From Candidatus Microsaccharimonas sp. (GTDB lineage Bacteria; Patescibacteriota; Saccharimonadia; Saccharimonadales; Saccharimonadaceae): DNA of 64,000 nucleotides. The position numbers and the translations under genes are program-made. The notes under the pieces were generated by a model. The model saw only the letters and a list, made by a program, of their open reading frames with translations. It was not told where the DNA came from and made no database searches. Below, piece by piece: positions 3,356 through 51,584 of the stretch. The stretch is from NCBI GenBank assembly GCA_049661485.1, contig JBATAC010000002.1, positions 556,699 to 620,698 on the forward strand, given 5' to 3'. The first letter of the stretch is position 1; every line of letters begins with the position of its first letter.

Positions 3356-4354
3356 TTATGGATAGAGTGCCGGCCCGCTTGAAGTTGATCCATTTGCAGT
3401 ACCGCTCCAAGTCCATCCCGAGCTTGTGCCATCGGCAAATTTTATAGCACCATAGCTGTTGTCTTTATACACCATCAATTTCGAAGCTTGAATATACTCA
3501 CCGCTATTTCCGGCCGACCATAATATCCTTAAGAATAATGGCTGCCCATCAAAGCCAGAGGGCACGGTGAAACTATACTCTAAAGCTCTTGGCGTGTTTG
3601 CAGTCAGGTTTATGTTTTGAGTAGTTGTACCGCCCAGGTTGGTCATACTTGTTGTTCCGCCGTAGCCTATCTGGACGTTAAGCGTTGCACTTGCATTTGA
3701 TTCAAGCGTTATCTTTACACCATATACGTCACCGGCCAGGGCGGTCATCATACCACCGTTTGCCCTTTCAATGTACATAGCGACCGCCGAAGTATTATTG
3801 CGAGTTATCCTGTATGATGATTCACTTAAACTATTATTGAAGATACCATGGCTTAGTGCTGAAGTGCTACTCCTAGCATAATACGTTGTATAGTTCGTAC
3901 TAGACGGCTGGGGGCTATGCGCCAGGTTTGTAATTGTAGGCGGAGTGACTACAGGCGGAGTGACTGGTGGAGTAATAATCGCATCACCACATGCACCTGA
4001 AATTGGATTATTTGTTTGGCGAGAGTCAAAATAAAAGCGAACTGTTGGTTGTATAGTACTGCTTGCATTAACACAGTAATACGAACCGTCACCACTAGCA
4101 AATGTTACAGTGGTATTACTGCTTGGTTGAAATGTTGACGGTAAAGATATCGGATAGGCGTCATTAAAATTACGTGCATTTTCCATTGATGTCGATACTT
4201 GTGTCAAGTCACTCTTTACGACATTCTCCGCAGTCTTCGTGCGCCAAGCACCATATCCAACTACACCAACCACGGCTAGAATTCCGATAACGGCAATAAC
4301 AACAATAAGCTCTACAATCGTAAATCCTTTGCTGCCCACGCGTTGTATGTTCAT
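3356..4354 (-). CDS. type IV pilin-like protein with large C-terminal domain
   Basis: N-terminal prepilin signature (SKGFTIVELIVVIAVIGILAVVGVVGY) with Glu at +5 after the predicted cleavage site. Followed by a proline-rich linker (TPPVTPPVVTPP) and a roughly 190-aa C-terminal domain. Confidence 0.75.
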   Translation of the reverse strand: MNIQRVGSKGFTIVELIVVIAVIGILAVVGVVGYGAWRTKTAENVVKSDLTQVSTSMENARNFNDAYPISLPSTFQPSSNTTVTFASGDGSYYCVNASSTIQPTVRFYFDSRQTNNPISGACGDAIITPPVTPPVVTPPTITNLAHSPQPSSTNYTTYYARSSTSALSHGIFNNSLSESSYRITRNNTSAVAMYIERANGGMMTALAGDVYGVKITLESNASATLNVQIGYGGTTSMTNLGGTTTQNINLTANTPRALEYSFTVPSGFDGQPLFLRILWSAGNSGEYIQASKLMVYKDNSYGAIKFADGTSSGWTWSGTANGSTSSGPALYP

Positions 4355-16930: not shown

Positions 16931-18345
16931 TCTTGAAACGGAACAATACTTTCAGCCCAAAGCTGTAGTTCTTGAAAAATAAAACTCTTTGAGTCGTCGG
17001 CTCCATGTATAGCAGCAAGCTCTTGCAGACGGCTTACGAAACCTGGTAGCTGTTTCTGAATTCGTGCTGCCCGCCATTGTTCCCACTCACCAACCTCATC
17101 TTCAGCTAGGCTTTGTGGGTAGTTACGAGCTTTGTAGTGAAGTAGTAAACCGTTAAGGCGCTCGTCGGTAAATTCAGGATGTAGGTCAGCTAAAGTGTTT
17201 GTATTAGCTTGACGCACTTTTTCAATTCGAAGCTTATCGATATCAGGAACAAAACCATCGTACAGTTGACCTTCCGGATCGGTAACTCTTTCGAATTCAG
17301 GGCGGCTTTCATAAAGCGACCGAATATTTTCAGCAAAAGACGGCGAAGATAATAATGTATTTCGATGCTTTTCGATAATTTCCTGGGTTAGCGCAATTTT
17401 TTCCCAGCCGGCCTCTTTTTCAAGTACACCAACTGGTGCGACTGCTGGGGCGCGGTTATACTGCAATTCTTTCACGGGTAATTTTACAAAGTCGTCTTTT
17501 TGACGCTCTTCCCAGGTTGCAAACATGCTTTTTGCTAGCTCTTTAACTGATAAATTCAGAAGCGGCGCTGGGTCATAACGCAAATCATACACAACTACAT
17601 TACCGTTACGCCCAGAGGTGAGCGGAAACGCGACGGTTGCTTTATGGTACGAGGGGTCGTAGCGGCCACTTACATAAACAAACGGCTTCTTATCGTCTAA
17701 ATTAACGAGTTCAGCTACTTTTTTCTTGTCTTTCATCGCAAAAAGGTGTGCGTAAATTTGTGGCTGCTTTTCTTTGACTAATTTTGTAACAGCAATTAAA
17801 GCTTCAACATCACTAAGAGCATCGTGGGCTTTAAAATGGTCAATACCATTTTCTTTGGTAATAAGTTCTAGTTTATTTACTTCCTTACCGTCAACAACCG
17901 GCCACTGAATACCTTCTGGCCTAAGTGCACGAGTCATCCGAACAACATCAAGCATATCCCAACGGCCACGACCATCACGCCACGCCCACTCGTACGGGTC
18001 GTTAAAGGTTCGCCAAAACAACGCACGGATAAATTCATCATCGAAGCGAATACTATTAAAACCGATTGTGATAGTGTCTTTGGTAAAAATTTCATCGATG
18101 AGTAGCTTAGCAAACTCAGCTTCAGTAAGCCCGTCTGACTGAGTTTGTTGCGGACTTATGCCGGTCACAAGAATAGCATCTGGATTTGGTAAGGTGTCAT
18201 CGTTTAATTTAACGAGGATGTTATATGGTTCACCAATTGGCTCAAAATTAAGTGTGGTACGCTGACCGGCAAACTGCATTATACGATCTTCCCGTGGGTT
18301 AAGCCCAGAAGTTTCAAGGTCATAGAAGAAAAATGTTTGTGACAT
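16927..18345 (-). CDS. sbcB: exodeoxyribonuclease I
   Basis: 472 aa. DEDDh exonuclease motifs (FFFYDLETSGLNPREDRIMQFA, GFNSIRFDDEF, HDALSDVEA) and an Exo I-type C-terminal domain. Confidence 0.85.
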   Translation of the reverse strand: MSQTFFFYDLETSGLNPREDRIMQFAGQRTTLNFEPIGEPYNILVKLNDDTLPNPDAILVTGISPQQTQSDGLTEAEFAKLLIDEIFTKDTITIGFNSIRFDDEFIRALFWRTFNDPYEWAWRDGRGRWDMLDVVRMTRALRPEGIQWPVVDGKEVNKLELITKENGIDHFKAHDALSDVEALIAVTKLVKEKQPQIYAHLFAMKDKKKVAELVNLDDKKPFVYVSGRYDPSYHKATVAFPLTSGRNGNVVVYDLRYDPAPLLNLSVKELAKSMFATWEERQKDDFVKLPVKELQYNRAPAVAPVGVLEKEAGWEKIALTQEIIEKHRNTLLSSPSFAENIRSLYESRPEFERVTDPEGQLYDGFVPDIDKLRIEKVRQANTNTLADLHPEFTDERLNGLLLHYKARNYPQSLAEDEVGEWEQWRAARIQKQLPGFVSRLQELAAIHGADDSKSFIFQELQLWAESIVPFQD

Positions 18346-18442
18346 ACCCTTATTATAGATGAGAACTATGAAGTTGTTCTTTAATGGCTTTAGAAAAACA
18401 AAAAAACACCTAGTTGGTGCTTGGTACGAAGGTGTCGGTAAC

Positions 18443-18453
18443 CCGACAGTGTA
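18443..18453. repeat. left arm of a perfect 11-bp inverted repeat (CCGACAGTGTA) flanking high-GC cassette A
   Basis: CCGACAGTGTA at 18443-18453 is the exact reverse complement of TACACTGTCGG at 19033-19043. Confidence 0.8.
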
Positions 18454-18484
18454 GTGCTAAAGCAGTAAATCAAGACGAGCCAAC

Positions 18485-18518
18485 GGCCCGGATGCGCGCG
18501 CGTTGGCGCATCCGGGCC
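18485..18518 (-). terminator. GC-rich hairpin downstream of the high-GC ORF (terminator-like, no clear U tract)
   Basis: GGCCCGGATGCGC, an 8-nt loop, then GCGCATCCGGGCC form a 13-bp perfect stem. It lies about 90 nt past the stop of the 18610..18933 gene. Confidence 0.5.
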
Positions 18519-18609
18519 GCCTTTGCAGCTCATCGGCCAGAGAAGCCGCACCGACTTCTTGGCTGAGGAATGCGTGATGAACTGCAGCTTGATGTCGCGC
18601 CGACGTCGG

Positions 18610-18933
18610 TCAGGCGGCGACGAGCTCGCGGGTCACGACGTCGATCGCCTGGACCACATCGGGGTGGAGCGGATCGCTGCCGGTGGCCTGGAGATCGAAG
18701 CCGCGACCGCGGGTCTCGATGATCTCGATGGCCTCGGCCTTGGTCGGCACCTGGCCGGCGTAGTCGACGATGTCGGACTCGACGCCCTTGCAGCCCTCGG
18801 TGCCGTCGGGCTTGAGGAGGGTGTCGATCATGTGGTCGCCGAGGCCGTCGCCGAAGCCCGAGCACGTGGAGTCGAGGATGAGGTTGTTGTCGATGCCGTC
18901 GTCCACGGGCTTGGTCGTGTGGTGCATGGTCAT
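18610..18933 (-). CDS. hypothetical protein of foreign (high-GC) composition, 107 aa
   Basis: ATG at 18933 follows AAGGAG with a 7-nt spacer. Almost every codon ends in G or C (ATG ACC ATG CAC CAC ACG ACC AAG CCC GTG GAC GAC GGC ATC...). Sequence MTMHHTTKPVDDGIDNNLILDSTCSGFGDGLGDHMIDTLLKPDGTEGCKG... matches no family I recognise. Confidence 0.7.
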   Translation of the reverse strand: MTMHHTTKPVDDGIDNNLILDSTCSGFGDGLGDHMIDTLLKPDGTEGCKGVESDIVDYAGQVPTKAEAIEIIETRGRGFDLQATGSDPLHPDVVQAIDVVTRELVAA

Positions 18934-19032
18934 GGTGTCTCCTTGGTTCGGTGTTGCCAGGATCCTGCGCACGTTTGCTAACAGGTCACTACCTAAGAAT
19001 GATCTTATATAGAGACCTGTCAGCAAATTTTA

Positions 19033-19043
19033 TACACTGTCGG
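19033..19043. repeat. right arm of the perfect 11-bp inverted repeat (TACACTGTCGG) flanking high-GC cassette A
   Basis: Exact reverse complement of 18443-18453. Confidence 0.8.
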
Positions 19044-19093
19044 ATTATTAATGATCTAATGAGAACAAAAGCTCAATCATTAGCTTAAAATGT

Positions 19094-19122
19094 ATTTTAT
19101 CACTAAAGTACGTTTTTGTCAA
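19094..19122 (-). promoter_or_regulatory. near-consensus sigma70-type promoter reading into high-GC cassette A
   Basis: The minus strand reads TTGACA (19122-19117), a 17-nt spacer (aaaacgtactttagtga), then TAAAAT (19099-19094). It sits immediately after the obg stop codon. Confidence 0.6.
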
Positions 19123-20494: not shown

Positions 20495-21271
20495 TTAATG
20501 TATGTAGTAGTACTGGCCGACTTGACTTGCCGATAGAATACGGCCAGAAACAATGTTGTAACCACCACCTGATACAGAGGCATTCATTTCACTAAGCTGT
20601 AGGTCACCATTCGGTAGTACCGCTTCAACAACAGCCACGTGACCCCAGTCTTGAATGATTGCACCAGCCGAAGGTGAACGGTCAACTTGATAGCCAGCAG
20701 CACGAGCATTTGCCGCCCAAGCACCAGCGTTACCCCACATAGAACCAATTGGTGCGCCCATTTGAGCACGACGCCAGTGAACATAGGAAGTACAGTTACC
20801 ATAAGCGTACCCACCAGAAGCACCGATACCTTTACTAATAAACCATGTGCTAGTACCGCTAAACCCAGAACTGTAGCCGGTAATAAACGTTGCAGTGTTA
20901 GTAGCTGACGCCGCAGCACGTGGCGCAACGTAGCCAGGACGCTCAGTCTCGGGAAGTTGTGCATTTGGAACAACAATCTTTAAACCGGTCGAGAGGCCAT
21001 TAATTTCAAGGTCATTATAAGTAGTAATAAGTGAAGCATCCGCTTTATACTTATCAGCAAGACCCTGAATCGTATCACCTTCCTTAACGGTATAGACAAC
21101 ACCATCACGTGGTAGGATTTCAAGGCTTGAACCAGCAGCCACAGTGTCACCTGTAAGGTTGTTAGCCCATTTAATGGTATCAACAGATAGGCCGTACTTA
21201 GCAGCTACACTTGTAACAGTATCACCTGGCTGAACAGCGTAGGTTGTAATGTTACGGCTCGCTGATGACAA
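20495..21271 (-). CDS. LysM-LysM-CHAP peptidoglycan hydrolase (annotated core; N-terminus probably extends to about 21630, see findings)
   Basis: Two LysM repeats (YAVQPGDTVTSVAAKYGLSVDTIKWANNL; YTVKEGDTIQGLADKYKADASLITTYNDL). CHAP domain with catalytic Cys/His context (GNCTSYVHWR...WGHVAVVEAV). The ORF-track start is a TTG. Confidence 0.85.
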   Translation of the reverse strand: MSSASRNITTYAVQPGDTVTSVAAKYGLSVDTIKWANNLTGDTVAAGSSLEILPRDGVVYTVKEGDTIQGLADKYKADASLITTYNDLEINGLSTGLKIVVPNAQLPETERPGYVAPRAAASATNTATFITGYSSGFSGTSTWFISKGIGASGGYAYGNCTSYVHWRRAQMGAPIGSMWGNAGAWAANARAAGYQVDRSPSAGAIIQDWGHVAVVEAVLPNGDLQLSEMNASVSGGGYNIVSGRILSASQVGQYYYIH

Positions 21272-22000
21272 CTGTACAATTGCCGGCTTACTAATAGTTG
21301 AGCTAACACTACCAGCACTTTGTTGGTATTCACTTTGTACACGAGTTGAAACGGCTAGCTCGGCGACGTTAGGCGCAACAGCTAAAGAAGCTGCCTGAGC
21401 AACTGAAGCCGCAATACCAGTAGCAACGACATCATTAACTGCAGGTTGATCGGCAGCTGATGGTGTATTTGCAACAGCAGTAGATGCAGCCGTTGCAGAC
21501 TGCTGCGGTGCACGGTAGCCAACGCCAATAACTGCAACAAGCAGTACGAAAACGCTGGCATAAATAGCGACGGTTGACGATTTAATGCGACCTTTTTGAG
21601 ATCGCTTTTTTGTAATATGTGCTGGTACATTGCTTGAACGTACTACAGCTACCCCACCCTGGGTAGTGTGAACACTACCGCCCGTAATGTCATTACGAAT
21701 TATCGTTCTCCTGCCGCTCGGATTTCTCTCGAGGGCGTCTACCGTAATAAGTCTTTGCTTCTTGCTTTTAAAACAAGAAAAGGATACATGTCGACCAGTG
21801 TTATTATATTATAGTTTCTGGTACCCGTACGACTGTTCAGATAGGCGCATTAAGCTTCATACATCTTACTCGCAGGTGCTTTCGGCTAAATCGGCCGGAG
21901 GAAACACTAGTAGATATGAAATACTCAATGTGCTTACCCTATTGTAGCAACTATGGCTTTTTAAGTCAATTTATTTTATAACTATGCTATTTTGTCAAGT

Positions 22001-46400: not shown

Positions 46401-46475
46401 TGGTGACCTCACGGAGAATCGAACTCCGATTGCCAGGATGAAAACCTGGTGTCCTAACCGTTAGACGATGAGGCC
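46401..46475 (-). tRNA. tRNA-Glu (anticodon UUC), CCA encoded
   Basis: Hand-folded cloverleaf: GGCCUCA / UC / GUC-UAACGGUUAG-GAC / A / CCAGG-UUUUCAU-CCUGG / CAAU / CGGAG-UUCGAUU-CUCCG / UGAGGUC-A-CCA. The 3-bp D stem is typical of tRNA-Glu. Confidence 0.9.
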
Positions 46476-46583
46476 ACAAAAGAACAAATCAAAGGAACAA
46501 AAAAGTTTTTACCCGAAGTATTGTAACAAAAAAACCCCTGTTTGACTAGTGCCTATCGGGGTTTAAAATGCATTTTTTAAGTG

Positions 46584-46629
46584 CCCGCCGTCGAGCCTCG
46601 CAGCGAAGTGCCACGAGGCCCGACGGGGG
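46584..46629 (-). terminator. GC-rich hairpin downstream of high-GC ORF B
   Basis: CCGTCGAGCCTCG, a 13-nt loop, then CGAGGCCCGACGG form a stem with 12 of 13 bases paired, flanked by CCC/GGG. It lies 20-65 nt past the stop at 46650. No U tract. Confidence 0.45.
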
Positions 46630-46649
46630 TATACCCCGGGGGTGGAGAT

Positions 46650-47066
46650 TCAGGCGACAGCCGTCACGACCGGTCGGCCGTAGACGGTAGTGGCAGAAAC
46701 CACCACGGTCGTCTTGCCACCCGAGGGCTGCTGACGGCGTGCCCGTTCCTCTTCGCAGTAGACTGTCATCCACCTCTTACCAGAGGGGTAGACCGACGAC
46801 TTCGCGCAGTAGGCGCGGGTAACCATCAGGAAGGCGTGCGCAAGGGCAGCCTCCCACCCTTCCAGGTCACCGGCGATAGCCTCGAGCTTGGCCTGAAGGC
46901 CGGACTTGGGCTGACGACGATGATCATCCAGAAGCTTGGCAGCACGTTCCTGGCAGGCGGTGTACGAGAGGTTCTTGATCTCATATTCCGGCACATTACG
47001 TGCAACCCAGTTCGCGAGCTCCCAGTCCGCGTCGCTCATCGTCTTTTCAAGCAGTTCAGTACTCAA
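46650..47066 (-). CDS. hypothetical protein of foreign (high-GC) composition, 138 aa (129 aa if started at ATG 47039)
   Basis: TTG at 47066 follows GGAG with a 5-nt spacer; an in-frame ATG lies at 47039. Third codon positions are GC-rich. Sequence (...MSDADWELANWVARNVPEYEIKNLSYTACQERAAKLLDDHRRQ...) shows no signal peptide, no TM helix, and no family I recognise. Confidence 0.6.
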   Translation of the reverse strand: MSTELLEKTMSDADWELANWVARNVPEYEIKNLSYTACQERAAKLLDDHRRQPKSGLQAKLEAIAGDLEGWEAALAHAFLMVTRAYCAKSSVYPSGKRWMTVYCEEERARRQQPSGGKTTVVVSATTVYGRPVVTAVA

Positions 47067-47178
47067 TCTGACTCCATCAATCTCGACCCCAACTTATGGG
47101 GTGTATAGCCACGATTGGCTTCACAACTCCGATTACGAAGCAGTGAAAGCTGAATAAACAGCCCATACTTAGTCGGAA

Positions 47179-47337: not shown

Positions 47338-47366
47338 TTGACATTTTGAACATTATGTGATAAATT
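47338..47366 (+). promoter_or_regulatory. near-consensus sigma70-type promoter reading into high-GC cassette C
   Basis: TTGACA (47338-47343), a 17-nt spacer (ttttgaacattatgtga), then TAAATT (47361-47366). The spacer ends in GTGA, as does the spacer of the cassette A promoter. Confidence 0.6.
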
Positions 47367-47428
47367 AAGTACATCATTCACGGGTGCGGTGCGAGAGACC
47401 ACGCCAGGGTGAGGAGGTCGTTAACAAG

Positions 47429-47450
47429 TCAGATCATTACAGTGCATCAA
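47429..47450. repeat. left arm of the imperfect inverted repeat bracketing high-GC cassette C
   Basis: TCAGATCATTACAGTGCATCAA compared with the reverse complement of 49814-49837 (TCAGATCATTACAATGTGCATCAA): identical except for a 2-nt indel. Weaker similarity extends to about 50 bp (GGTCGTTAAC... versus GGTTGTTAAT...). Confidence 0.8.
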
Positions 47451-47629
47451 TTAGTGCACTGATTTGCTTTAGGAAAAGCTGAGTACTTATTGGAAGCAGC
47501 GCGCCAGTTCGTTTATACGAATTGACGCGCTGCTCCCAACCACCCTCTCAGGGAGCTAGCTGCGGTAAACGCATTCAACATGCGCGAACCCGCGCAACCG
47601 ATCCCACGAGAGGGAGAAACGAGTACATC

Positions 47630-48133
47630 ATGTCCACTTCCACCGCCCCCACGACGCCCAGAGTTCCCAATGTTCTCGTGCTCAAGCGAGCAGACATCTT
47701 CGTCGGTTCGTTCGTCATCGGCCTGGTCGCCAACCTGGTTCTGATCATCGCGGTCTTCACGTCTGGCGTGTCGACCGGGGTGGCCGGGACCTTCGGTTTC
47801 GACTGGTCTCAGTTCCAGAACACCCTGACCTTCCTCTTCGGAGGGATCGGGTCGGCTCTGTGGCTCATCGGCGGTATCGTCGTCCTGGCCGCGACCGGCT
47901 ACGCTTTCTACTGGCTTTCGAGCCATGGTCATCACAAGTGGGTCGTCGTCGCATCCTTGATCGGCATGTTCGTCGGAGGGTTCATCCTCTGGCGACTGGT
48001 CGATTGGTCCAACTTCGGGTTCGGCTTCGTGCCGCTCCTCATCCTGATTGCCTACACCGCCTTCTGGGCGGGAGTGGCATCGTTCATCATCCCGCTTCGC
48101 CCCAAGCTGTCGCGCAAGCGCGGCACCAACTGA
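47630..48133 (+). CDS. hypothetical 4-TM membrane protein of foreign (high-GC) composition
   Basis: ATG at 47630 follows GGGAG. 167 aa with four hydrophobic helices and a basic C-terminal tail (RPKLSRKRGTN). Third codon positions are almost all G or C. Confidence 0.7.
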   Translation: MSTSTAPTTPRVPNVLVLKRADIFVGSFVIGLVANLVLIIAVFTSGVSTGVAGTFGFDWSQFQNTLTFLFGGIGSALWLIGGIVVLAATGYAFYWLSSHGHHKWVVVASLIGMFVGGFILWRLVDWSNFGFGFVPLLILIAYTAFWAGVASFIIPLRPKLSRKRGTN

Positions 48134-48146
48134 AAGGAGGTGCGCT

Positions 48147-49655
48147 ATGCAGCGCATCGTAGCGGCTCTGTCCGCATCCATGGTGGCCGTGCTCCTGCTC
48201 GCAGGCTGTTCATCCACTAACGTCAACTGGGCGGGCGGTTCGTCCGACCTCCCCGACGTCAACCTGAAGGACACCGCTTCCGTGCAGGCACTGTGCGGTG
48301 GGGAAGCCGAGACGGTTCTCAACACCGTCTCAGAGGCAACTACCACAGAGGAGAGCTCGGGCCAGCGCAATGCGCTGACTTCCCTGGGTCTCTCCGCTGA
48401 AGAGGTGAACGACAACAACATGCTGACGGAGATCATCGGCGCGCTCAAGGTTCGCGCTGCGGACAACGAGTGCGCGGCCGACGAGCAGACCTCGAACCAG
48501 TCCGGACAAGTGGGTGTCGAAGAAAACGACGGCACCCAGTTCACGCTTCCGCTGGTTTCGGGGTCCGATTCGACCCTCATCGTCGACAGCACAACACAGG
48601 CGGCAACCCCGCCGCTGCTGGATGGTTCGCTTCGCTTCACCGCGCAGACCCTCACATGGGAAGGCCTGGTGCAGCGTGTGGGCAACCAGCAATGGTATAT
48701 CGATGGCATCAACGCACGTGCGGCCCAGACGGGCTTCACGTGGGACGATGTTCTGAGGTTCGCTTCGGTGAACCGCATGAAGGACGGTAAGGTCGACAAC
48801 AGCGGCGTCAACGCGCTGGCAATTCAGATCTTCAACCGTCCCGATCTCACCGACGACCAGGCTCGCGCCGAAGTCGCCAAGTACATCACTCCCGAGGTCG
48901 AGAAGGTCATCAACGTCACGGTCTACCCCGTTCTCGACCAGAGCGGAAACATCGTGAGGGCGGGCCTTCCGATCCAACGGATCAACAACGGCTTCATCAA
49001 CACGATGAATGTCGGCTCGAAGGCCGAGCCGAGCATGGGTAACTACTTCGACACGCAGCGCATGGTTCGCGTGTCGCTGATGCCCATCACGTTCGACGAT
49101 GCAGGCAAGGCGGTCAGCCTCGACGGAAGTCGAGGTGCGGGTATCTTCATCGACTGCGGCAACCTTCACTGGGTGCCGAAGGCGGTGTGGTACTGCAAGT
49201 CCGACTCCTGCGAGAAACCGCAGTGTCCCATGGGCACTATCGGTACTCCGCCGAACTGTTCGGTTCCCACGCCCCCGACGCCGACTTCGCCGCCCTCGCA
49301 TCACGAGGAGTGCGTTTCGGACTGCCTCGAAGACAAGGACTGGGATAAGAGTCCCCAAGAAGACGGCTGGGTACCACTGGATGTGGGACCCCTGACCGAT
49401 GGAAGGGGGTCTCAAGCTCAGCTGGAATCCGGCGAGACCAGCGGGAACGTCATCGACAATCCCGTGGCGGAAGACACCAAGACGGGCGACACCACGACGG
49501 ATCTGCCGAGCGGTACAATCACCGCGCCGGGAGCTACGGATGGAGGTGACGACCCGTCACAAGGTGAAGTCGACGAAGAGAACACGAACGGCGACGAAGG
49601 TGGCACCGATGGTGACACCTGCGTTCCGGATGTGATCGCAGGCATCACCTGCTAG
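48147..49655 (+). CDS. putative secreted lipoprotein of foreign (high-GC) composition, Cys-rich with acidic C-terminal tail
   Basis: ATG at 48147 follows AAAGGAGG with a 6-nt spacer, 13 nt after the upstream stop, which suggests an operon. Signal peptide with lipobox (MQRIVAALSASMVAVLLLAGC). 503 aa. Contains a Pro/Thr linker (PTPPTPTSPP), a Cys-rich stretch and an Asp/Glu/Gly/Thr-rich tail. Confidence 0.75.
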   Translation: MQRIVAALSASMVAVLLLAGCSSTNVNWAGGSSDLPDVNLKDTASVQALCGGEAETVLNTVSEATTTEESSGQRNALTSLGLSAEEVNDNNMLTEIIGALKVRAADNECAADEQTSNQSGQVGVEENDGTQFTLPLVSGSDSTLIVDSTTQAATPPLLDGSLRFTAQTLTWEGLVQRVGNQQWYIDGINARAAQTGFTWDDVLRFASVNRMKDGKVDNSGVNALAIQIFNRPDLTDDQARAEVAKYITPEVEKVINVTVYPVLDQSGNIVRAGLPIQRINNGFINTMNVGSKAEPSMGNYFDTQRMVRVSLMPITFDDAGKAVSLDGSRGAGIFIDCGNLHWVPKAVWYCKSDSCEKPQCPMGTIGTPPNCSVPTPPTPTSPPSHHEECVSDCLEDKDWDKSPQEDGWVPLDVGPLTDGRGSQAQLESGETSGNVIDNPVAEDTKTGDTTTDLPSGTITAPGATDGGDDPSQGEVDEENTNGDEGGTDGDTCVPDVIAGITC

Positions 49656-49659
49656 CTCT

Positions 49660-49696
49660 GGTGAGCGGGTGGGGTCCTACGCCCCGCCCGCTCACC
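49660..49696 (+). terminator. GC-rich hairpin immediately after the lipoprotein stop
   Basis: GGTGAGCGGGTGGGGT paired with GCCCCGCCCGCTCACC gives about 16 bp including two G-U pairs. It starts 5 nt after the TAG at 49653-49655. The following sequence is T-rich but not a clean U tract. Confidence 0.55.
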
Positions 49697-49813
49697 ACCT
49701 AGTGATTTGCGTTTCCTTTAGCATTTCCAAGGAGTTGTTAAAATTGCTGAGTTTCTAGCGAACTCGCTTTCATACAACTCCTTGTGAGTTACTTTTGTAA
49801 ATCGCGCAATTAG

Positions 49814-49837
49814 TTGATGCACATTGTAATGATCTGA
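49814..49837. repeat. right arm of the imperfect inverted repeat bracketing high-GC cassette C
   Basis: TTGATGCACATTGTAATGATCTGA is the reverse-complement partner of 47429-47450. Confidence 0.8.
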
Positions 49838-49940
49838 TTTGATGACTATTAACAACCTGGCAACAATGTTCAAACTTTTATTAAATAATATTAATTTTTG
49901 ATCTTAATCTGCGAGATAGATCAATAGAAGGAGTATAGAT

Positions 49941-51584
49941 ATGAGTAAACTTATGTCTCTCATTCGTCGAGCCCCTAAGCGCTTTAGCGCAGGTGTGATA
50001 ATGGCTGCAGCTGCAATCATTATCCCTGCCGCTGCATATGCTTGGGGTCCTAGTCGACCAACTTTTACAGGAGCTAACCCAGCCCCTTACGTAACATTTA
50101 ACTCAATTACAGATAATGCACAGGTTGGAGACGAACGAAACTTTGTTCGAATCCGTGAATCTGGCGTTAGCGCTAATTATGGCGATAATGTATCCCTCAC
50201 CCCAGGTAAGGTCTATGATGTGTCTGTGTATTATCACAACAACGCCGCATCTAACCTTAACGATAGTGGAAAAGGTATCGCTAAAGATGCAAAACTTAAG
50301 ATGGAAGTTCCTGGTATAGTAAATGCCGGCGTTAACGCTGTGTTTACCGGTACCGTATCCGCTTCAAATGCTAATCCTGGTTCAGTCTGGGATGAAGCAT
50401 ATGGTAAGAACTCGACAAATGGCCAAGTTGCGCTTCGTTATGTTTCAAACTCTGCAAAGTTTACCAGTAATGGCGCAATTAACGGACAAAAGCTTCCAGA
50501 TACATTGTTTACAACAGGCGCAAACCTCGGTTTCAACGCACAAGACGGTACAGTACCTGGTTGTAACGAATATTCTGGCTTTGTTACATTCCAGATTCGT
50601 GTTGATCAACCGGACTTTAATGTTGTGAAGAAAGTAAGTGTTGACGGTGGTAAGACATGGGCGGATAGCGCAAAAGCAGAAGCCGGTGCAACCGTACAAT
50701 ATTACATATCGTACCAAAATACAGGTACTACACAACAAGACAATGTACTTGTTCGTGACATGCTCCCTCAGGGTGTTTCATACACCGCTAACAGTACAGA
50801 GATTATGAACTCAACCACAGGTGGTCAGTTCAAGAAAACTGTAGAGGGAATTACTACTAATGGTCTCAACGCTGGATCATACCAGCCAAAAGGCAACGTC
50901 GGGTACAAGTTTAGCGCTAAACTTCCTAATGAAGATGCACTCAAGTGTGGAACAAACACACTTACAAATACTGCTCGCGTTACTACAAATGCAGGCTACA
51001 AGGAAGATACTGCCACTGTTACAATTGACCGTGAATGTAAGCCAACCGTTAAGTACACCTGTGACGCCCTCTCAATCAAGACTATTAGCCGTACTGAATT
51101 CCAATTCACCACTGCTTATACTATTGAAAACGCCACATTCAAAAATGTTACCTACGTGATTCGCAACGCTCAGGGCCAAGAAATTGACCGTAAGACTGCG
51201 ACATCAAACACACTTAACTACACCCAAACAACTCCTGGTGCATACTCTGTTCAAGCTATCGTAACAGTTACCGTTGATGGCCAAGACAAGACTATAACCA
51301 GTAACGGTTGTAAGGCTGCCTTCGAAGTTCCTAAGACACCTGGTGATATCACCGTATGTGAACTAGCTACTAAGAAGATTGTTACTATTAAGGAAAACCA
51401 ATACGACGAGTCTAAGTACTCTAAGGACCTTAGTAAGTGTGCAGAAACACCTACACCTCCAGTCACTCCACCAGAACTTCCAACTACTGGTGCGACTGAA
51501 AACATTGTTGCCGTTGTTGGCCTTGGTGCATTGATTGCAAGCGCTGCTTATTACATCGCAAGCCGTCGTGCTCTAAACCAATAG
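49941..51584 (+). CDS. LPXTG-anchored cell-surface protein (DUF11/Ig-like repeat type)
   Basis: Signal peptide (MSKLMSLIRRAPKRFSAGVIMAAAAIIIPAAAYA). C-terminal sorting signal LPTTG, then a hydrophobic helix (IVAVVGLGALIASAAYYIA), then SRRALNQ. Native low-GC composition. GGAG lies 8 nt upstream of the ATG. Confidence 0.8.
   Translation: MSKLMSLIRRAPKRFSAGVIMAAAAIIIPAAAYAWGPSRPTFTGANPAPYVTFNSITDNAQVGDERNFVRIRESGVSANYGDNVSLTPGKVYDVSVYYHNNAASNLNDSGKGIAKDAKLKMEVPGIVNAGVNAVFTGTVSASNANPGSVWDEAYGKNSTNGQVALRYVSNSAKFTSNGAINGQKLPDTLFTTGANLGFNAQDGTVPGCNEYSGFVTFQIRVDQPDFNVVKKVSVDGGKTWADSAKAEAGATVQYYISYQNTGTTQQDNVLVRDMLPQGVSYTANSTEIMNSTTGGQFKKTVEGITTNGLNAGSYQPKGNVGYKFSAKLPNEDALKCGTNTLTNTARVTTNAGYKEDTATVTIDRECKPTVKYTCDALSIKTISRTEFQFTTAYTIENATFKNVTYVIRNAQGQEIDRKTATSNTLNYTQTTPGAYSVQAIVTVTVDGQDKTITSNGCKAAFEVPKTPGDITVCELATKKIVTIKENQYDESKYSKDLSKCAETPTPPVTPPELPTTGATENIVAVVGLGALIASAAYYIASRRALNQ

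Follow-up and report, generated by a model that had tools for sequence, protein, structure and literature searches.

Introduction

In the precursors of rRNA operons and in the early mRNAs of phage T7, which are substrates of RNase III, the sequences on either side of the functional part pair with each other over a distance and bracket the whole RNA. RNAIII of Staphylococcus aureus measures about 0.5 kb and has a dual function, as a regulatory RNA and as the message for delta-haemolysin; it is transcribed as an independent unit, has a promoter and a terminator of its own, and contains many hairpins, domains closed by long-range helices and an embedded open reading frame (ORF). The mRNAs of hok/sok-type type I toxins are small independent messages whose 5' and 3' ends pair in fold-back inhibition. 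These systems are the closest functional analogies to the locus described here. At the DNA level, integron cassettes and miniature inverted-repeat elements such as the Correia elements of Neisseria, whose transcripts form hairpins and are cleaved, are short intergenic units with inverted repeats, variable presence and strain-specific cargo. Here we describe a locus that resembles each of these in part, the spacer between the genes obg and sbcB in a 64,000-nt stretch of DNA (the window) from Candidatus Microsaccharimonas sp. of the family Saccharimonadaceae (assembly GCA_049661485.1, contig JBATAC010000002.1, positions 556,699 to 620,698). An initial annotation had described this spacer as an inserted, G+C-rich cassette of foreign composition, bounded by an inverted repeat and carrying one orphan gene. 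Our own reading, to which we assign about an even chance of being right, is that the region is an independent transcription unit, a member of an undescribed family of helix-closed structured RNAs in Saccharimonadaceae, and that it carries an orphan gene. Judged by sequence comparison, which shows this much, the unit has a putative promoter and terminator of its own and complementary ends that are conserved through sequence change in many relatives.

The likeness to each described system is limited. A sister unit in the same window has a closing helix of 25-34 bp with conserved G·U pairs, the typical size of an RNase III site, whereas the helix of the obg-sbcB unit has 15 bp, brackets a small protein message and bears no sequence relationship to the rRNA stems, and cleavage at this helix is hypothetical. 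There is no homology to RNAIII; its anti-Shine-Dalgarno loops resemble the CCCC(C) loops of one subfamily of related spacers, but the window RNA is without C-rich loops and its ORF is four times longer. In contrast to the hydrophobic toxins of hok/sok-type systems, the protein encoded here is acidic and hydrophilic (grand average of hydropathy -0.19, isoelectric point 4.27), its ribosome-binding site is not masked in the predicted fold, and no antisense RNA gene is evident. Unlike Correia-type elements and integron cassettes, the unit has repeats that are not shared between copies, do not form an insertion boundary and are not accompanied by target duplications, and neither an integrase nor an attC-type site was found among its called neighbours. 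The RNA lysM-TM7 (RF03005), encoded 3 kb away, is likewise a lineage-restricted structured RNA with a conserved genomic context, but the obg-sbcB unit is much larger, has a variable interior and corresponds to no Rfam model. Searches with Rfam 15, at the gathering score or at E <= 1-10, returned no match in the window unit or in the relatives' spacers, and ARAGORN found no tmRNA in either. RNase P RNA, tmRNA, 6S RNA and SRP RNA were accordingly rejected as identities of the spacer RNAs (Rfam at the gathering score and E <= 1, and ARAGORN). Literature searches for G+C-rich genes, G+C-rich islands and non-coding RNAs of Saccharibacteria turned up no description of such an RNA family or of a second, maintained class of codon composition.

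A predicted transcription unit with complementary ends

The spacer lies between the genes for an SbcB-type exonuclease I (PF00929 and PF08411) and for Obg (PF01018 and PF01926). In 200-nt windows its G+C content is 0.57-0.70 across positions 18400-18999, against about 0.37-0.47 on either side; the block proper, at about 18.47-18.97 kb, has 66-70% G+C, while the Saccharibacteria genome has about 43% elsewhere. The composition step of about 500 bp reported in the initial annotation is therefore present as described. Only two other such blocks occur within the window, at 46.4-47.2 kb and 47.6-49.6 kb.

All parts of the unit are read on the minus strand. A sigma-70-type promoter (19094..19122; TTGACA-17-TAAAAT with a TG upstream of the -10 element, 11 of 12 matches) lies directly after the obg stop codon; it is near-consensus, in line with the strong promoter of the initial annotation, and it aligns, from 19122 to 19094, with the TTGACT-17-TAAAAT promoter of the related locus L002. 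The start of transcription is inferred at about 19086. The predicted 5' end of the transcript forms a leader hairpin, P0 (19056..19083), which is present in the minimum-free-energy fold and has equivalents in relatives. A conserved CATT motif (19053-19050) follows and is succeeded by the 5' arm of the closing helix, P1 (UAAUCCGACAGUGUA; 19033..19047), which includes the right-hand copy of the repeat noted earlier. This arm starts 84 nt past the obg stop codon, and its perfect 11-nt core occupies spacer nucleotides 88-98; in relatives the arm starts at 85-141 nt. Just inside P1 lies a long imperfect hairpin, P2 (18974..19027), with 25-nt arms that are 84% complementary; L002 has a hairpin of different sequence at the equivalent position. 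Beyond the ORF, in the 3' untranslated region, is a perfect G+C hairpin of 14 bp (18484..18519; arms 18484-18497 and 18506-18519, 100% complementary), one base pair longer than the hairpin first recorded at 18485-18518. It aligns with a G+C hairpin of L002, and a long G+C hairpin before the 3' arm is common in relatives; in the window it may act as a first, weak terminator. The 3' arm of the closing helix, P1' (UACACUGUCGGGUUA; 18439..18453), includes the left-hand repeat copy. The last element, shortly before the sbcB promoter, is an intrinsic terminator with a 7-bp stem followed by TTTTGTTTTT (18394..18422). This terminator is homologous to those of L002 and of a second relative, L014.

The perfect 11-bp inverted repeat consists of CCGACAGTGTA at 18443-18453 and its complement at 19033-19043, and these are the sole two matches in the window even when one mismatch is allowed. 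With a single mismatch, read on the minus strand as a U·G pair, the repeat extends to 15 nt (18439-18453 with 19033-19047). The initial annotation had judged the repeat unlikely to arise by chance. That judgement holds in part: 7% of spacer shuffles contain a perfect repeat of 11 nt or longer, whereas the scored stem between the two ends of the unit has p = 0.005-0.015. Taken alone, the repeat is borderline against chance, and the case that it is real comes from the comparison with relatives.

Folding of the whole predicted transcript was strongly favoured over shuffled sequences (z = -11.3). The closing helix is part of the minimum-free-energy structure, with a predicted pairing probability of 0.98. 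The transcripts of four relatives gave z = -6.6, -8.6, -6.2 and -10.0, and a closing helix is present in the minimum-energy fold of each. Closing helices measure 15 bp in the window unit, 12-22 bp in relatives and 25-34 bp in the sister unit. Pairing between the ends was significant in six of nine G+C-rich units and in none of six core-gene controls. For G+C-rich coding regions themselves, folding is slightly favoured over shuffled versions (z = -2.4, -1.5 and -2.95; obg, -0.02). We also considered that the repeat might be a former terminator hairpin split by an insertion; this was rejected, as a T-run is missing after both arms and the unit has a separate terminator further on.

The closing helix covaries in related obg-sbcB spacers

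The genes obg and sbcB are adjacent in all 54 related loci in which both were placed (related loci are given L numbers). In 13 of them the spacer measures 0-73 bp, and in the other 41 it is 350-1357 bp long. Close relatives have either an empty spacer of 28-73 bp or one with different content. To this extent the initial annotation is supported: the unit is discrete and dispensable, at a variable place between two core genes. On the strand of obg and sbcB, occupied spacers contain, in this order, a near-consensus promoter next to obg, a leader hairpin, the CATT motif, the 5' arm, the interior, the G+C hairpin, the 3' arm, the terminator and the sbcB promoter. The G+C-rich interior is 157-670 nt long in relatives and in most of them has no long or conserved ORF; occupied spacers are usually without a convincing one. 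Of the 41 occupied spacers, 23 (19 distinct sequences) have a perfect long-range repeat of 12-19 nt at the same relative position, and each of these repeats has p <= 0.02 when compared with shuffles. The arms vary in sequence by lineage, examples being GAAAATTCGACAG, GACAAACTGGATAAAGA, AAGTCGGACAATAAG, ATAGCTAGGTACAT, CAACAAGTCGGA and TAACTTGTTGGACAA. Two loci (L009:2781-4000 and L044:1370-2726) have a tandem pair of units, both members of which are equipped with a promoter and a terminator; in L009, the G+C content of the first unit rises to 75% over 150 nt.

Covariation was measured in 20 loci whose 5' sides were aligned on the CATT motif (alignment A4). In this set, 17 of the 19 pairs of the closing helix change on both sides. 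Doubly changed cells number 119, compared with 43 +/- 5 in shuffled alignments, and none of 500 shuffles reached 119; the covariation score of the helix is 0.70, against 0.06-0.15 when the partners are slid. Within a six-member subfamily analysed with RNAalifold, 20 of 63 predicted pairs show compensatory change, and further helices are predicted.

The window unit aligns with L002 and L014 at both ends: at the 5' end over the promoter, leader, CATT motif, 5' arm and first hairpin, and at the 3' end over the G+C hairpin, 3' arm and terminator. Its interior aligned with that of no relative. Since the interior cannot be aligned and no internal core is shared, the family is defined by its ends and not by its interior. 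By these features the window unit belongs with the related spacers: it has its own promoter and terminator, a leader followed by CATT and paired arms, and a G+C hairpin before the 3' arm. A spacer RNA of the family is also found in the complete genome of Candidatus Saccharibacteria bacterium TM7i (L008, CP075337.1, positions 3362-4000), with arms TACAGATTGGATAAA (p = 0.01). We take strain TM7i to be cultivated, in which case it makes the spacer-RNA family experimentally testable.

One subfamily of the spacers (L010, L024, L047, L048, L049, L013 and L052) contains several hairpins with CCCC(C) loops, together with a long covarying hairpin, CCACGGAGGGGUGAU / AUCACCCCUCCGUGG, that resembles a duplex of Shine-Dalgarno and anti-Shine-Dalgarno sequences. 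These hairpins hint at a regulatory RNA that might target ribosome-binding sites. Across the whole spacer family, an excess of C-rich hairpin loops was not significant (20 loops, compared with 15.6 +/- 3.4 in shuffles). A conserved small ORF appeared to be present in several spacers (beginning MxESPP in L024, L010 and L013, and MSPP in L005 and L009), but the codons for 'ESPP' form a hairpin with a CCCCC loop and insertions and deletions break the frame from one relative to the next, and it was discarded as a conserved peptide.

An orphan gene with G- and C-ending codons

The block carries one ORF of 107 codons on the minus strand (18610..18933), or 105 codons from the second ATG according to the NCBI annotation. 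A Shine-Dalgarno sequence, AAGGAG (18939..18944, minus strand), precedes the ATG at 18933 by 5 nt and is predicted to be mostly unpaired (probability 0.61). G+C content at the first, second and third codon positions is 0.66, 0.41 and 0.95, and 103 of the 107 sense codons end in G or C, the remaining four in T and none in A. This periodicity and codon choice mark the ORF as genuine coding sequence of a high-G+C type, in agreement with the ribosome-binding site and the third positions noted in the initial annotation. The G+C content at third codon positions (GC3) is atypical for the recipient genome, in which core ORFs have values of 0.31-0.40. A long ORF on the plus strand over the same region has 0.82, 0.47 and 0.69 at the three positions; its first-position value exceeds the third, which marks it as the shadow of the minus-strand gene, and it was rejected as a gene.

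The protein carries a net charge of -13 and has no hydrophobic segment, and it is probably cytoplasmic. Nuclease inhibitors, immunity proteins and DNA mimics are among the small, very acidic proteins. It matched no Pfam or NCBIfam model, so the description as an orphan stands, and searches of PHROGs, PADLOC and the PDB were all negative; nothing in these results supports or contradicts the immunity or antitoxin role that had been suggested for it as speculation. Among 5.8 billion protein clusters it alone was recovered. A full HMMER pass over 1.84 billion representatives returned the protein itself and one further sequence (P0002, 4319 aa, E = 2e-4), which was judged spurious because its match to residues 1-50 is short and repeated and it has no Pfam domain. 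A tblastn search of phage and plasmid records and a search of viral contigs gave no relative, and none of 70 related loci encodes one. A single-sequence AlphaFold model had a mean predicted local distance difference test (pLDDT) score of 46.6, with residues 1-61 below 50, and was too poor for a fold search. An identical protein is encoded in the Candidatus Microsaccharimonas metagenome-assembled genome (MAG) GCA_049661065.1; NCBI lists it under three MAG accessions, whose contigs measure 0.2-1 Mb (two of them reported as 734 kb and 892 kb).

A second helix-closed unit in the window

A second unit of the same design was found at 47338-49846 on the plus strand, between the pyruvate kinase gene and a surface-protein gene. 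It consists of a promoter (about 47338-47366), a closing helix of 25-34 nt (47420-47453 with 49811-49846), a hairpin with 23-nt arms (47490-47539), a G+C-rich gene for a membrane protein (47630-48133), a G+C-rich gene for a 502-aa lipoprotein-like protein (48147-49655) and a G+C hairpin (49659-49697), all on the plus strand. The 502-aa protein has 37 homologues; those that carry a name all belong to Saccharimonadaceae, and synteny is conserved at the locus. Each of the seven orthologous loci with enough flanking sequence has the helix, with two G·U pairs at fixed positions throughout and one compensatory change, from A-U to G-C. Since the conserved G·U pairs leave the DNA repeat imperfect at fixed positions, the helix is best explained as RNA on the sense strand.

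The orthologous genes of this unit have GC3 of 0.76-0.89 at 37-61% protein identity, while the flanking pyruvate kinase is 87-92% identical: the cargo evolves far faster than the genes beside it. Because high GC3 is kept in orthologues that have diverged this far, it is a maintained state rather than the fading trace of an import. A motif common to the ends of the two units was sought; the only candidate, AACAAGTYRGAY, resembles the arms of L006 and L037 but occurs once in the window and in four of 71 loci, and was rejected.

Downstream of the second unit, a gene at 49941-51584 (plus strand) encodes a protein of 547 aa with a C-terminal LPTTG-type sorting signal followed by a hydrophobic stretch, and orthologues of this protein match the CLIPPER domain (PF01345). 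The presence of this gene places the second unit in a surface-protein neighbourhood.

Alternative explanations of the obg-sbcB unit

The unit could be a purely structured non-coding RNA whose 107-codon ORF yields no functional protein. The relatives' interiors, most of them devoid of a long or conserved ORF, the conserved helices of their RNAs, the extreme folding of the window unit and the lack of a confident AlphaFold fold would all suit such an RNA. The three-position periodicity over 107 codons is nevertheless foreign to non-coding G+C-rich RNA and is lacking in the relatives' interiors, and the canonical AAGGAG with its 5-nt spacing is predicted to be accessible. The sister unit, moreover, clearly encodes conserved proteins. 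We consider a purely non-coding unit unlikely.

The view taken in the initial annotation, that the unit is a foreign cassette bounded by its repeats, would in its full form mean recent acquisition from a high-G+C donor, an actinobacterial host or a phage, with the repeats as the ends of a mobile unit. G+C content and codon usage do look actinobacterial, the gene is an orphan, and the unit is present or absent among close relatives, 13 of which have empty spacers. No relative carries the orphan gene, so the case in which the initial annotation would have been refuted, the same G+C-rich gene in the spacers of relatives, did not arise. The locus nearest to the window by its SbcB is L067 (88% identity over the part available), which has at the same spot a different G+C-rich orphan ORF, of 155 aa and on the opposite strand (L067:674-1141, within a unit at L067:632-1288; G+C 0.62, 0.36 and 0.93 at the three codon positions). 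This ORF has a TTGACT-17-TATAAT promoter, a GAGGAG site and a terminator, and in its message the start is perfectly paired over 10 nt with bases just past the stop codon (1167-1176 with 663-672). Short stretches of high GC3 also occur in L002, L005 and L026.

The repeat, however, does not behave as the edge of a cassette. Relatives pair at the same position with different arms and different interiors, and the pairing covaries. The repeat does not enclose the promoter, the leader hairpin or the terminator, and the empty spacers (L012, at 28 bp, and 12 others) are without the whole unit of about 750 bp, promoter and terminator included; because parts outside the repeat are missing as well, the repeat is a conserved internal feature of the unit and not an insertion edge. 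The bases outside the arms (GGTGTCGG... and ...TTAATGAT) are not direct repeats, so there is no target-site duplication. The arm sequence is found nowhere else in the window, and arms differ between loci and between the window's own units. No transposase or recombinase was found among the unit's ORF and its called neighbours (Obg, SbcB, UvrA, a LysM/CHAP protein, YceG and RuvX). Composition is no evidence of recent import either, given the stable GC3 of the sister-unit orthologues, and no donor relative was found: the collections searched, about 15 billion proteins together with phage, plasmid and viral collections, contained no homologue of the protein from actinobacteria, phages or plasmids. 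A recently imported cassette is thus quite improbable.

An invertible DNA switch, in which a recombinase would flip the segment between the repeats so that the gene is or is not read from a fixed promoter outside them, is very improbable. It would account for a promoter outside the repeats and a gene inside and for arms that are identical within a genome and differ between genomes, as if homogenised by recombination, and the strand test at this locus is not decisive. Yet the window and the L002 group (four assemblies) agree in the orientation of the interior, and all eight sister-unit loci are in one orientation; as a comparison of assemblies, this is a weak test. The sister helix keeps its G·U pairs, with the DNA repeat imperfect at fixed positions, the internal hairpins covary as well, the called neighbours include no recombinase, and arms that differ between the units of one genome make a common invertase site unlikely. 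An assembly or binning artefact that wrongly joined foreign high-G+C DNA into the contig, which the metagenomic source and the abrupt composition change might suggest, is extremely improbable, and the observation is taken to be real: Saccharibacteria sequence lies on both sides, the outer parts of the unit are homologous to relatives, the identical protein stands under three NCBI MAG accessions, and independent studies have repeatedly recovered a G+C-rich interior between these two genes (L002, L033, L034, L069 and others).

A model for the helix-closed unit

Our preferred reading, the helix-closed transcription unit, can be put as a model. Transcription from the near-consensus promoter right after obg would yield an RNA of about 690 nt (19086-18394). 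Past the leader hairpin, 15 nt of the 5' region would pair with 15 nt between the G+C hairpin and the terminator, and the resulting helix would tie the ends of the RNA around a strongly folded, G+C-rich interior. In this genome the interior would be a working message with an exposed AAGGAG and a gene of 107 codons. That the arms pair in RNA is suggested by their predicted pairing probability together with the G·U pattern of the sister unit. The closing helix and the terminal hairpins may then protect or process the RNA ends, either by blocking exonucleases or by offering a site to a double-strand-specific RNase, and so give a long-lived, stable message. The extreme use of G- and C-ending codons would, we infer, be a property of a class of fast-evolving genes kept in helix-closed transcripts rather than a sign of recent import. 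The orphan ORF itself could have come from a swap within that gene pool or from an older import.

Several points weigh against this reading. The transcript ends, the helix and the translation of the unit are predicted features, and the 107-aa ORF is without an orthologue. The best repeat within each sequence set the 3' register of alignment A4, a choice that favours the structure. The core of the C-loop subfamily (C-rich loops and the GGAGGGGUGAU/AUCACCCCUCC hairpin) is absent from the window's predicted fold, which has no CCC loops. The different orphan gene of L067, in opposite orientation, indicates a turnover of cargo by some transfer process that is real and that the model leaves unexplained. 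At 15 bp the closing helix is short for a classical RNase III site. The fold points to no regulatory role, as the Shine-Dalgarno sequence is predicted to be unpaired with a probability of 0.61 with the 3' arm and 0.58 without it; because pairing leaves the predicted accessibility of the ribosome-binding site unaltered, a hok-like translational lock is unlikely. The strand tests at the obg-sbcB locus are weak or mixed: internal G·U mismatches outnumber A·C mismatches by 5 to 1, a weak test, and the sense stem scores higher in five loci with clear stems, the antisense stem in at least three. Only at the sister unit is the strand test decisive. With the test this weak at the obg-sbcB locus, selection on the repeat at the DNA level could also be at work.

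A broader idea, which we regard as rather doubtful and offer tentatively, is that Saccharimonadaceae keep fast-evolving genes and RNAs in a helix-closed, G+C-rich 'chassis' with swappable cargo, in which GC3 of 0.75-0.95 is selected on the RNA for stability, processing or export. In its extreme version, this actinobacteria-like codon usage would be kept up because the messages or their products work inside or upon the actinobacterial hosts, themselves rich in G+C, on which these epibionts live. The obg-sbcB unit with its acidic orphan protein would be one such cargo.

If the helix-closed reading holds, the spacers represent a candidate new family of structured RNA, whose position and covarying helices are conserved in dozens of Saccharibacteria and which lies outside Rfam. 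The results also suggest that aberrant G+C content is an unsafe sign of horizontal transfer in the Saccharibacteria lineage: a syntenic operon holds GC3 near 0.8 at about 50% identity between orthologues, next to core genes at 0.35. Two stable classes of codon composition in one small genome might reflect selection on RNA folding or stability, biased gene conversion at hot spots of recombination, or a link to high-G+C hosts. Helix-closed units carry fast-evolving surface and orphan proteins in obligate epibionts, so they may matter for host interaction.

Other features of the region

Downstream of the obg-sbcB unit, sbcB itself appears to be leaderless: a TATAAT element (18357-18352) lies only 6 nt before the ATG at 18345 (minus strand, 18345-18357). 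This arrangement is kept in relatives, including those with empty spacers (for example L012:3985-4003). On the other side, the lysM-TM7 RNA (75 bits) was found at 21708-21846 on the minus strand, upstream of the gene for the LysM/CHAP protein (20495..21271), and 15 relatives have it at the same position.

The third G+C-rich block (46580-47110) lies beside the gene for tRNA-Glu (46401-46475, minus strand) and contains an ORF of 138 aa on the minus strand (46650..47066) with GC3 of 0.71. The ORF matched no family, and end-pairing across 46580-47110 was not significant (p = 0.16). At the corresponding place relatives have different G+C-rich ORFs, among them an ORF of 146 aa in L027 (GC3 0.84) with significant end-pairing.

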